This document shows positions 6,461 to 52,793 of a stretch of DNA of 64,000 bases, piece after piece (positions within the stretch are counted from its first letter, which is position 1; every line of letters begins with the position of its first letter). Made by a program: the position numbers and the translations under genes. The notes beneath the pieces are model-generated. The model was not told the DNA's origin. It made no database searches and saw nothing but the letters and a program-made list of their open reading frames with translations. Source of the stretch: Escherichia coli. Its GTDB lineage: Bacteria; Pseudomonadota; Gammaproteobacteria; Enterobacterales; Enterobacteriaceae. The stretch lies in the NCBI RefSeq assembly GCF_003334405.1, contig NZ_QOWM01000014.1; one strand, 5' to 3'.

Positions 6461-7633
<1,173 letters not shown>

Positions 7634-7639
7634 CCACTT

Positions 7640-7822
<183 letters not shown>

Positions 7823-7884
7823 ATGGTTTGCCAGATACGTCATAGATCTAAATGCCACTGAATAACAGTTTAGTTGCCGTTCTT

Positions 7885-13277: not shown

Positions 13278-15520
<2,243 letters not shown>

Positions 15521-44165: not shown

Positions 44166-44377
44166 CTGATTGACCGTAAAGAAAGATGCGCTACATACAA
44201 GTGTAGCACCGTTTATTCTCTGTAAATTCCTTATTACAACGGCGTGAAACGCCTGTCAGGATCCACTGCCAGACCTCATTTTACGGTTTGCGCAGGCGTC
44301 TACGTTTCACCACAACACTGACATCACTCTGGCAAGGATGTTAGGATGGACCACGGATGATAATGACGGTAACAAGC

Positions 44378-45319
44378 ATGTTAGACAATGTTTTAAGAAT
44401 TGCCACACGCCAAAGCCCACTTGCACTCTGGCAGGCACACTATGTCAAAGACAAGTTGATGGCGAGCCATCCGGGCCTGGTCGTTGAACTGGTACCGATG
44501 GTGACGCGCGGCGATGTGATTCTTGATACGCCGCTGGCGAAAGTAGGCGGAAAAGGCTTATTTGTAAAAGAGCTGGAAGTCGCGCTCCTCGAAAATCGCG
44601 CCGATATCGCCGTACACTCAATGAAAGATGTGCCGGTTGAATTCCCGCAAGGTCTGGGACTGGTCACTATTTGTGAGCGTGAAGATCCTCGCGATGCCTT
44701 TGTGTCCAATAACTATGACAGTCTGGATGCGTTACCGGCAGGCAGTATCGTCGGGACGTCCAGTTTACGTCGCCAGTGCCAACTGGCTGAACGCCGTCCG
44801 GATCTGATTATCCGCTCCCTGCGCGGCAACGTCGGCACTCGCCTGAGCAAACTGGATAACGGCGAATACGATGCCATCATTCTTGCCGTAGCCGGACTAA
44901 AACGTTTAGGTCTGGAGTCACGTATTCGCGCCGCGTTGCCACCCGAGATTTCTCTTCCGGCGGTAGGACAAGGTGCGGTGGGTATTGAATGCCGCCTTGA
45001 TGATTCACGCACTCGCGAGCTGCTTGCCGCGCTGAATCACCACGAAACTGCACTGCGCGTTACCGCAGAACGCGCCATGAATACCCGTCTCGAAGGCGGA
45101 TGTCAGGTGCCAATTGGTAGCTACGCCGAGCTTATTGATGGCGAAATCTGGCTGCGTGCGCTGGTCGGCGCGCCGGACGGTTCGCAGATTATTCGCGGTG
45201 AACGCCGCGGTGCGCCGCAAGATGCCGAACAAATGGGGATTTCGCTGGCAGAAGAGCTACTGAATAACGGCGCGCGCGAGATCCTCGCTGAAGTCTATAA
45301 CGGAGACGCCCCGGCATGA
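44378..45319 (+). CDS. hemC: Porphobilinogen deaminase (hydroxymethylbilane synthase)
   Basis: Track ORF 320 aa trimmed to [19 protein letters not shown]... (313 aa); an upstream in-frame ATG at 44357 cannot be excluded. Confidence 0.9.
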
Positions 45320-46077: not shown

Positions 46078-47283
46078 ATGACGGAACAAGAAAAAACCTC
46101 CGCCGTGGTTGAAGAGACCAGGGAGGCCGTGGACACCACGTCACAACCTGTCGCAACAGAAAAAAAGAGTAAGAACAATACCGCATTGATTCTCAGCGCG
46201 GTGGCTATCGCTATTGCTCTGGCGGCGGGCATCGGTTTGTATGGCTGGGGTAAACAACAGGCCGTCAATCAGACCGCCACCAGCGATGCCCTGGCTAACC
46301 AACTGACGGCATTGCAAAAAGCCCAGGAGAGCCAAAAAGCCGAGCTGGAAGGCATTATTAAGCAACAAGCTGCACAACTTAAGCAGGCGAATCGTCAGCA
46401 AGAAACGCTGGCAAAACAGTTGGATGAAGTCCAACAAAAGGTCGCCACCATTTCCGGCAGCGATGCTAAAACCTGGCTGCTGGCTCAGGCCGATTTTCTG
46501 GTGAAACTCGCCGGACGGAAGCTGTGGAGCGATCAGGACGTCACGACCGCTGCAGCGTTGCTGAAAAGTGCAGACGCCAGCCTGGCGGATATGAATGACC
46601 CGAGTCTGATTACCGTTCGTCGGGCAATTACCGATGATATCGCCAGCCTTTCTGCAGTATCGCAGGTGGATTATGACGGCATCATCCTTAAGCTTAATCA
46701 GCTTTCAAATCAGGTAGATAACCTGCGTCTGGCCGATAATGACAGCGATGGTTCGCCGATGGATTCAGACGGTGAAGAGCTTTCCAGTTCCATCAGCGAA
46801 TGGCGTATCAATCTGCAAAAAAGCTGGCAGAACTTTATGGACAACTTCATTACGATTCGCCGTCGTGATGACACCGCCGTACCGCTGTTAGCGCCAAATC
46901 AGGATATCTATCTGCGCGAAAATATTCGCTCTCGCCTGCTGGTCGCAGCACAAGCTGTACCGCGTCACCAGGAAGAGACTTATCGCCAGGCGCTGGAGAA
47001 CGTCTCCACCTGGGTACGTGCTTACTACGATACTGATGATGCCACCACCAAAGCGTTCCTCGACGAGGTGGACCAGTTAAGCCAGCAAAATATCTCGATG
47101 GATCTTCCGGAAACCCTGCAAAGCCAGGCGATGCTGGAAAAACTGATGCAGACTCGCGTGCGTAACCTGCTGGCACAACCGGCAGCGGGGACAACGGAAG
47201 CTAAACCTGCACCTGCACCTGCACCTGCACCTGCACCTGCACCGCAAGCTGATACTCCGGCAGCCGCGCCGCAAGGAGAATAA
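46078..47283 (+). CDS. hemX: HemX (membrane-anchored coiled-coil protein of the hemCDXY operon)
   Basis: Track ORF 401 aa with TM segment, coiled-coil and a C-terminal (PA)6 tract. Confidence 0.9.
47206..47241 (+). repeat. Hexanucleotide tandem repeat (cctgca)x6 inside hemX
   Basis: Six perfect cctgca units, in frame, translated as [12 protein letters not shown]. Confidence 0.9.
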
Positions 47284-47285
47284 CC

Positions 47286-48482
47286 ATGCTAAAAGTGTTA
47301 TTGCTCTTTGTGTTGCTGATTGCGGGGATCGTGGTTGGCCCGATGATTGCCGGCCATCAGGGTTATGTGCTGATCCAGACCGACAACTACAATATCGAAA
47401 CCAGCGTCACGGGCCTGGCGATCATATTGATTCTGGCGATGGTAGTGCTGTTTGCCATTGAGTGGCTACTGCGGCGGATCTTCCGCACTGGCGCGCACAC
47501 CCGTGGGTGGTTTGTCGGACGTAAGCGTCGCCGTGCACGTAAGCAGACCGAACAGGCGCTGCTGAAACTGGCGGAAGGCGATTATCAGCAAGTTGAAAAG
47601 CTGATGGCGAAAAATGCCGATCACGCGGAACAACCGGTGGTGAACTATCTACTGGCTGCCGAAGCCGCGCAACAACGTGGTGATGAAGCACGCGCCAACC
47701 AACATCTGGAACGCGCAGCGGAGCTGGCCGGCAACGACACCATTCCGGTAGAAATCACCCGCGTACGTCTGCAACTGGCCCGTAATGAAAACCATGCTGC
47801 ACGCCACGGCGTGGATAAGCTGCTGGAAGTTACGCCACGCCATCCGGAAGTATTACGTCTGGCGGAACAGGCGTATATCCGCACAGGTGCATGGAGTTCG
47901 CTGCTGGATATTATCCCATCAATGGCGAAAGCCCATGTTGGTGATGAAGAACATCGTGCAATGCTGGAACAACAGGCATGGATTGGCCTGATGGATCAGG
48001 CGCGTGCCGATAACGGTAGCGAAGGTTTGCGTAACTGGTGGAAAAACCAAAGCCGGAAAACGCGTCATCAGGTAGCGTTGCAGGTGGCAATGGCGGAACA
48101 TCTTATTGAATGTGACGATCATGATACTGCCCAGCAAATTATCATCGATGGCCTGAAACGCCAGTACGACGATCGCCTACTGCTGCCGATTCCTCGACTG
48201 AAAACAAACAATCCGGAACAGCTGGAAAAAGTGCTGCGCCAGCAAATCAAAAACGTCGGCGATCGCCCGCTGTTGTGGAGCACACTGGGCCAGTCACTGA
48301 TGAAGCACGGAGAATGGCAGGAAGCATCGCTCGCCTTCCGCGCAGCGCTGAAACAACGTCCGGACGCCTACGATTACGCATGGCTTGCCGACGCGCTGGA
48401 CAGACTGCACAAGCCGGAAGAAGCTGCAGCGATGCGTCGCGACGGTTTGATGTTAACGTTGCAGAATAACCCGCCACAGTAG
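47286..48482 (+). CDS. hemY: HemY (TPR-containing inner membrane protein)
   Basis: Track ORF 398 aa, MLKVLLLFVLLIAGIVVGPMIAGHQGYVLIQ...; recognised as HemY. Confidence 0.93.
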   Translation: MLKVLLLFVLLIAGIVVGPMIAGHQGYVLIQTDNYNIETSVTGLAIILILAMVVLFAIEWLLRRIFRTGAHTRGWFVGRKRRRARKQTEQALLKLAEGDYQQVEKLMAKNADHAEQPVVNYLLAAEAAQQRGDEARANQHLERAAELAGNDTIPVEITRVRLQLARNENHAARHGVDKLLEVTPRHPEVLRLAEQAYIRTGAWSSLLDIIPSMAKAHVGDEEHRAMLEQQAWIGLMDQARADNGSEGLRNWWKNQSRKTRHQVALQVAMAEHLIECDDHDTAQQIIIDGLKRQYDDRLLLPIPRLKTNNPEQLEKVLRQQIKNVGDRPLLWSTLGQSLMKHGEWQEASLAFRAALKQRPDAYDYAWLADALDRLHKPEEAAAMRRDGLMLTLQNNPPQ

Positions 48483-48529: not shown

Positions 48530-48736
48530 AAAAAAACGCCTGCTCTTATTACGGAGCAGGCGTTAAAACAGGTCTGTATGACAACAAGTGGGTGCTTCAC
48601 TCAACGTTGTGTCCATGGTGTCTGATGAGGCATAAGCGACATCTGTCAGTGGACGATAAGCACCGTAAACGGCTCTGCGTCATTCCGGAGTTTATGAGGC
48701 ACTAAGGCGAACATAAGAGATGGAATGAGCATCTAC
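48530..48736 (-). ncRNA. glmZ: Small regulatory RNA GlmZ
   Basis: Minus strand reads gtagatgctcattccatctcttatg...ending gcaggcgttttttt with a terminator hairpin; matches the GlmZ sequence I recall (about 207 nt), convergent with hemY. Confidence 0.88.
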
Positions 48737-52356: not shown

Positions 52357-52433
52357 TGGTCGGCGAGAGAGGATTCGAACCTCCGACCCACTGGTCCCAA
52401 ACCAGTTGCGCTACCAAGCTGCGCTACTCGCCG
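52357..52433 (-). tRNA. proM: tRNA-Pro (UGG)
   Basis: 77 nt; minus strand cggcgagtagcgcagcttggtagcgcaactggtttgggaccagtgggtcggaggttcgaatcctctctcgccgacca. Confidence 0.93.
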
Positions 52434-52475
52434 AAATACTGCTTTTTGAATTTTTAGTTCAATTCTTTAAAGTCG

Positions 52476-52562
52476 TGGTGCGAGGGGGGGGACTTGAACC
52501 CCCACGTCCGTAAGGACACTAACACCTGAAGCTAGCGCGTCTACCAATTCCGCCACCTTCGC
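52476..52562 (-). tRNA. leuT: tRNA-Leu (CAG)
   Basis: 87 nt with long variable arm; minus strand gcgaaggtggcggaattggtagacgcgctagcttcaggtgttagtgtccttacggacgtgggggttcaagtcccccccctcgcacca. Confidence 0.93.
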
Positions 52563-52582
52563 ATTGTCACAACTTCTAATAA

Positions 52583-52659
52583 TGGGGTGGCTAATGGGAT
52601 TCGAACCCACGACAACTGGAATCACAATCCAGGGCTCTACCAACTGAGCTATAGCCACC
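52583..52659 (-). tRNA. hisR: tRNA-His (GUG)
   Basis: 77 nt including the extra 5' G; minus strand ggtggctatagctcagttggtagagccctggattgtgattccagttgtcgtgggttcgaatcccattagccacccca. Confidence 0.93.
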
Positions 52660-52716
52660 ACTACAAATCTTGTTACGCGGTATTACTACCACCGCAGCTC
52701 AAGCGCCGGGACTAAA

Positions 52717-52793
<77 letters not shown>

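Follow-up and report, generated by a model that had tools for sequence, protein, structure and literature searches.

CVN014 is one of the loci in the generic MLVA scheme for E. coli by Lindstedt et al. 2007 (GECM-7/GECM-10). It has repeatedly been described as the locus with the greatest polymorphism in that scheme (PMC3519732, PMC3877011), and both its primers, F TCCCCGCAATCAGCAAMACAAAGA and R GCAGCRGGGACAACGGAAGC (PMC8143711 Table 1), and the formula by which its alleles are numbered, (product size - 111)/6 (PMC8143711), have been published. In one study of non-O157 STEC, nine CVN014 alleles spanning 4-15 gave a Nei index of 0.83 (PMC3519732), and the single clone ST131 contains alleles 2-11 (PMC3407997). 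A Swedish collection of ESBL E. coli has a range of 2-12, with frequencies of 13%, 2%, 5%, 13% and 20% for alleles 2, 3, 4, 5 and 6, and of 5%, 11%, 17%, 6% and 5% for alleles 7, 8, 9, 10 and 11, respectively (PMC5217547). For comparable 6-bp loci of E. coli O157, rates of 4e-5 to 1.8e-3 per generation have been reported, which are higher with longer arrays; the hemX locus was not among the loci of that study (PMC3777172). Full-text searches that combined hemX with tandem repeat, MLVA or VNTR turned up no open-access paper in which hemX is named as the host gene of CVN014 or the repeat is described under that gene's name.

The array described here lies near the 3' end of hemX in a window of 64,000 nucleotides, by which the whole stretch of E. 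coli DNA that was analysed is meant. It is CVN014 itself, an already known and routine typing marker. The features of the locus are as follows.

46078-47283, plus strand: hemX coding sequence, 401 aa here (ORF list, Pfam, RefSeq annotation).
47182-47201, plus strand: CVN014-R primer site, GCAGCRGGGACAACGGAAGC (exact match; primer from PMC8143711 Table 1).
47206-47241, plus strand: CCTGCA microsatellite, which forms the part of MLVA locus CVN014 that varies (sequence, Tandem Repeats Finder, shuffles, copy-number variation).
47273-47278, plus strand: AAGGAG, SD-like for hemY, inside the final hemX codons (…PQGE) (read from the sequence; putative SD role).
47286-48482, plus strand: hemY, the downstream gene, which contains the CVN014-F site (ORF list, RefSeq annotation).
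47305-47328, minus strand: CVN014-F primer site, TCCCCGCAATCAGCAAMACAAAGA, within the hemY start (exact match; primer from PMC8143711 Table 1).

The sequence contains six perfect CCTGCA units at 47206-47241 with zero mismatches. Tandem Repeats Finder called the array at 47205-47243, with a period of 6, 6.5 copies, 100% matches and a score of 78, and each of the remaining tandem arrays of the 64-kb window has at most 2.3 copies. When a three-unit 18-mer of the array was searched with up to two mismatches, four matches were obtained, against 0.01 expected from shuffled sequence. As (47206-46078)/3 = 376, the array begins precisely at codon 377 of the hemX reading frame, and it codes for (Pro-Ala)6, which corresponds to HemX residues P377-A388 and ends 13 residues from the C-terminus. 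The initial annotation had placed six in-frame copies of this unit at the same coordinates, near the C-terminus of a 401-aa HemX, and each of these particulars is borne out by the sequence, Tandem Repeats Finder and the ORF. The hemX ORF is flanked by hemC and hemD on one side and by hemY on the other, and the RefSeq label of the matching gene is hemX in all E. coli genomes among the matches listed. In RefSeq the product is called 'uroporphyrinogen-III C-methyltransferase', presumably a historical misnomer.

Several other features of the window were recorded alongside the hemX locus. The mechanical ORF of hemC, at 44357-45319 on the plus strand, starts seven codons upstream of an internal Met; this Met is taken here to be the usual HemC start, and the ORF list has therefore probably placed the beginning of the gene too far upstream. 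The GlmZ (SraJ) small RNA lies immediately downstream of hemY, at 48530-48736 on the minus strand, as a full-length Rfam match of 218 bits, an arrangement that is expected for E. coli. Further along, the minus strand carries a cluster of four tRNA genes at 52357-52793, Arg(ccg), His(gtg), Leu(cag) and Pro(tgg), which resembles the argX-hisR-leuT-proM operon. At 7633-7824, a 98-bp unit is repeated 1.9 times in REP/BIME-like palindromic sequence (GCCGGATGCGGCG...), overlapped by an Rfam naRNA4 match at 7692-7769 on the minus strand, and the 'Erse small RNA' (RF02757) gives a full-length Rfam match of 319 bits at 14915-15166, also on the minus strand.

The hemX repeat can be equated with CVN014 because the published primers match. 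Both CVN014-R and CVN014-F have exact matches, one on either side of the array, with one site each in the window and none in shuffles. The predicted amplicon, 47182-47328, is 147 bp long, and (147-111)/6 = 6.0 gives allele 6, the number of units counted. The same size formula returned the counted units in 13 other alleles, and it held wherever both primer sites were intact. Two strains have altered primer sites: NCTC11023, which besides having lost the array carries a mismatch in the CVN014-R site, and MFDS1019527, in which a 9-nt deletion falls inside the CVN014-R site, together with 8 units. For these two alleles, the CVN014 PCR would be misleading or null.

Copy number in E. coli was surveyed with a 241-nt query spanning the array against 5,426 complete genomes, and the hemX repeat locus was present in every one of them (5,426/5,426). 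Sixty rows, taken at even steps of the ranking, had match lengths of 217, 223, 229, 235, 241, 247, 253, 259, 265, 271, 283, 289 and 307 nt, and a second systematic sample, for which the K-12 allele served as the query, contributed the extra lengths of 277, 295 and 301 nt. Across the two samples, pooled to 120 rows, match lengths thus run from 217 to 307 nt, all in 6-nt steps, which is equivalent to 2 to 17 units; these unit numbers are inferred from match length and are sequence-verified for fetched alleles only. Two units were found in 21 of the 120 rows, three in 4, four in 9, five in 18, six in 19 (~16%), seven and eight in 10 each, nine and ten in 7 each, and eleven in 6. Arrays of 12, 13, 14, 15, 16 and 17 units occurred in one row each, and the other 3 rows, from two strains, were other in-frame deletion alleles. 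The Nei index computed from these pooled counts is ~0.89. Alleles are not evenly distributed, those of 2 and of 5-6 units being the most frequent, and this could reflect population structure together with an excess of laboratory K-12 strains in the sample, or else a degree of selection. The frequencies published for the Swedish ESBL collection are close to those of this genome-based sample (PMC5217547).

The alleles that were fetched as sequence give a more direct view of the same variation. In all 13 sequenced alleles of whole-unit length, the count inferred from length equals the count in the sequence, and 12 of the 13 arrays are perfect; perfect (CCTGCA)n arrays are present in 12 of the 16 fetched E. 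coli alleles. The unit numbers read among the whole-unit alleles are 2, 4, 5, 7, 8, 9, 10, 11, 12, 13, 14, 16 and 17. Nissle has 8 units, O104:H4 C227-11 has 11, and Ec-FL1-1X has 17, with a HemX of 423 aa. O157:H7 genomes carry 3, 5, 7 or 12 units, of which 3 was obtained from match length only and 5, 7 and 12 were sequence-verified. In GPEC673 the third unit is interrupted (CCTACA). NCTC11023 has an in-frame 27-nt deletion by which the whole array and the next five codons are gone, and its HemX is 384 aa long; in MFDS1019527, a deletion of 9 nt lies immediately upstream of an array of 8 units. In all 16 fetched alleles, hemX stays open and the junction between the hemX stop and the hemY start is constant. 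In E. coli, HemX lengths from 384 to 423 aa represent natural alleles and should not be mistaken for annotation errors.

These results bear directly on the initial annotation, which had foreseen in-frame copy-number variation of the slippage type, had mentioned HemX annotations of about 393 aa, and had proposed that units be counted over many E. coli genomes, with six units in every allele as the finding that would speak for a fixed tract. Among the sampled E. coli genomes the locus does differ in length, by multiples of 6 bp and over a range of 2 to 17 units. The shorter length is that of K-12 DH10B, whose hemX CDS of 1182 nt encodes 393 aa and contains 2 units; the K-12 protein is eight residues shorter than the 401-aa form because it has four units fewer. 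When the units are counted, alleles vary, and a tract fixed at six units is clearly contradicted, since only ~16% of the sampled genomes have that number.

The reading favoured here, to which a probability of about 0.93 is assigned, is that CVN014 is a VNTR in the 3' end of hemX that changes by whole-unit slippage, keeps the frame, and sits in a tolerant tail where its variation is near-neutral. Perfect 6-bp units would gain or lose whole copies through slipped-strand mispairing at replication. With a unit of two codons, each change would remain in frame, and (Pro-Ala)n would merely become longer or shorter. Located in the low-complexity C-terminal tail, behind the conserved HemX domain, these changes in length would apparently be tolerated, and the variation would be neutral or nearly so, making the locus a fast molecular clock and no switch.

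Slippage is the mechanism we infer from the allele pattern and by analogy with the 6-bp VNTRs of E. coli O157. It is suggested because the units are perfect, because alleles differ by whole units on identical flanks, because variation occurs within clones, and because allele ranges are wide. The unit itself contains the palindrome TGCA, and a single strand of 6 units is predicted to fold into an imperfect hairpin of -5.9 kcal/mol (z = -3.3), as is one of 17 units, at -20.3 kcal/mol (z = -6.1). Such predicted hairpins could stabilise slipped intermediates.

Flanking SNP haplotypes do vary between alleles, with GCT or GGT and ACT or GCT directly after the array, and this variation would be in keeping with length differences that stem mainly from homologous recombination importing whole hemX alleles. 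That origin, or one in assembly errors, is nonetheless very unlikely. Among the fetched alleles, one identical flanking haplotype was found with 2, 4, 5, 6, 7, 9, 10, 12 and 17 units, and unit number varies within ST131 and within O157:H7. Furthermore, assembly artefacts are ruled out by the PCR fragment sizing of independent laboratories, which shows an equal allele range (PMC3519732, PMC5217547). Slippage, by comparison, would account for whole-unit differences on one haplotype.

The second part of the favoured reading, tolerance of length, concerns the position of the tract in the protein. The Pfam HemX domain (PF04375) covers residues 130-363 (E = 3.8e-108, model positions 2-235 of 236), and the (Pro-Ala)6 tract is outside it, in a Pro/Ala/Thr-rich tail formed by residues 364-401. 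An AlphaFold2 model, built from a 21-sequence alignment and of low confidence throughout (mean pLDDT 43.5, pTM 0.31), predicts helices at residues 31-57 and, coiled-coil-like, at 70-122, with the last helix ending at residue 364 and no secondary structure past it. On this model, the helix at 31-57 is a probable membrane anchor, and the tail may be disordered. No solved structures with detectable sequence similarity to HemX were found. From its single predicted N-terminal helix, HemX is assumed here to be an inner-membrane protein and not a surface antigen.

Relatives of HemX place the repeat in a wider context. An exact-pattern scan with the array end and its flank, in one genome per species, returned 77 loci, of which four were in hemX, all from Escherichia. 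The other loci, from Pseudomonas, Sphingomonas and others, were rejected as relatives, being unrelated Pro-Ala-coding sequences or chance matches. CCTGCA arrays occupy the same hemX site in E. albertii and E. whittamii (6 units each), in Escherichia sp. E1V33 (7 units) and in Escherichia sp. MOD1-EC7003 (2 units). Since the array is present at one hemX site in several Escherichia species, its origin goes back at least to that of the genus. The E. coli species representative was absent from the matches to this exact pattern in the one-genome-per-species scan; the final unit of its allele may be interrupted, or its flank may differ.

Beyond the genus, the HemX proteins of Citrobacter and Salmonella continue past the conserved ...RVRNLLAQP with Pro/Ala/Thr-rich tails that vary in both sequence and length, and every one of those compared ends in APQGE. 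The tail contains PAPAPAPAP in Citrobacter gillenii and C. freundii, and the Salmonella protein has no PA repeat. In Citrobacter sedlakii, HemX has 1, 2 or 3 extra PAA units, for lengths of 394, 397 and 400 aa, respectively, an indication that a 9-bp repeat at the corresponding place in Citrobacter is polymorphic independently of the Escherichia array.

That changes in length are tolerated is argued by the range of 2-17 units, by the in-frame loss of the tract in NCTC11023, by the repeat-free HemX of Salmonella, and by the position of the tract outside the domain. From these observations, the number of units appears to be near-neutral.

The same observations weigh against reading the Pro-Ala tract as a functional spacer that tunes HemX activity through its length, with the length variation maintained by lineage-specific or diversifying selection. 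Such a spacer could determine how far the periplasmic C-terminus extends, or its contacts with partners. Pro-Ala stretches are stiff linkers in other envelope proteins (the OmpA hinge, TonB and lipoyl-domain linkers), and the identical codons have been kept in E. albertii, E. whittamii, E1V33 and MOD1-EC7003. A conserved interaction of HemX with YhcB/ZapG has been reported from two-hybrid work (PMC8163987), and the protein has been discussed as a remote Mic60 relative without the mitofilin domain (bioRxiv 10.1101/2022.06.14.496148). However, with 2-17 units in E. coli there is no length favoured species-wide, and lengths differ inside single clones (ST131, PMC3407997). One strain, NCTC11023, has lost the entire tract in frame, Salmonella HemX is without it, and the tract lies beyond the conserved domain. 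A tuning role is thus unlikely. Should tail length tune some envelope function of HemX, CVN014 would be a rapidly evolving quantitative trait under lineage-specific selection and not a neutral marker.

Near-neutral slippage must also be set against a regulatory role for the repeat, given the gene that follows. The hemX stop codon occupies 47281-47283, and the hemY ATG is at 47286, 2 nt past it. The AAGGAG inside the last hemX codons (…CAAGGAGAATAA) is 8 nt ahead of this ATG, and it probably explains the conservation of the terminal codons of hemX: the PQGE end is common to Citrobacter and Salmonella although the rest of the tail varies. In predicted RNA folds, the hemY SD is fully paired (window 47273-47288), and this would be compatible with hemY translation being coupled to that of hemX. 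Tuning of hemY translation by unit number, through local structure, was considered and rejected, as RNA folding gave constant pairing probabilities for the SD and AUG from 0 to 17 units.

A hypermutable simple repeat that lies within a gene, with the ribosome-binding site of hemY 32 nt further downstream, invites comparison with the contingency loci of phase or antigenic variation, in which case it would switch hemX or the downstream hemY. This interpretation is exceedingly improbable. With a 6-bp unit the frame never shifts, and hemX is open in 16/16 fetched alleles; the predicted accessibility of the hemY SD and AUG is equal at 0-17 units; and HemX seems to be an inner-membrane protein rather than a surface antigen, to judge from the predicted anchor helix and the topology assumed above. 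Because the unit equals two codons and the hemY site is equally accessible throughout, a frameshift switch is excluded, and a switch in hemY translation is unsupported.

Whole-unit slippage in a length-tolerant tail is thus retained as the account of the hemX repeat, which is of little interest outside typing. Its new value is small, as CVN014 has been in use for almost twenty years and is the most discriminating generic E. coli MLVA marker. Three small points are added here: primer matches that tie CVN014 explicitly to the Pro-Ala tail at the HemX C-terminus, an allele distribution from complete genomes that agrees with PCR-based surveys, and evidence both that the array is found across the genus Escherichia and that it can be lost without disruption of hemX.

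Comparison with other repeat systems sets the locus in place. Like the contingency loci in surface genes of Haemophilus and Neisseria, hemX contains a hypermutable simple repeat within a gene that would change by slippage. It differs from those loci in that a unit length divisible by three precludes a frameshift switch, and in that HemX is presumably no surface structure. With the OmpA hinge, TonB and lipoyl-domain linkers, the HemX tail shares a low-complexity composition of alternating Pro and Ala; those linkers connect two folded parts, whereas the HemX tract is 13 residues from the C-terminus, has no domain after it, and is not conserved in length.

Other in-frame coding hexamers of enterobacteria, for example O157-19/TR7 in E. 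coli O157 and STTR5 in Salmonella, likewise change by whole units and are used in typing, but their genes and encoded peptides differ from those of the hemX repeat. Identity with O157-19/TR7 was considered and rejected: the PulseNet VNTR-19 forward primer, in the sequence assumed for it here, has no match in the window and maps to rcnA in 326 genomes. With CVN014, by contrast, the hemX array has in common its primer sites, the 6-bp unit, the 111-bp offset, alleles from 2 to ~17 and the top variability. No difference was found between them; they are the same locus, of which the window carries allele 6.
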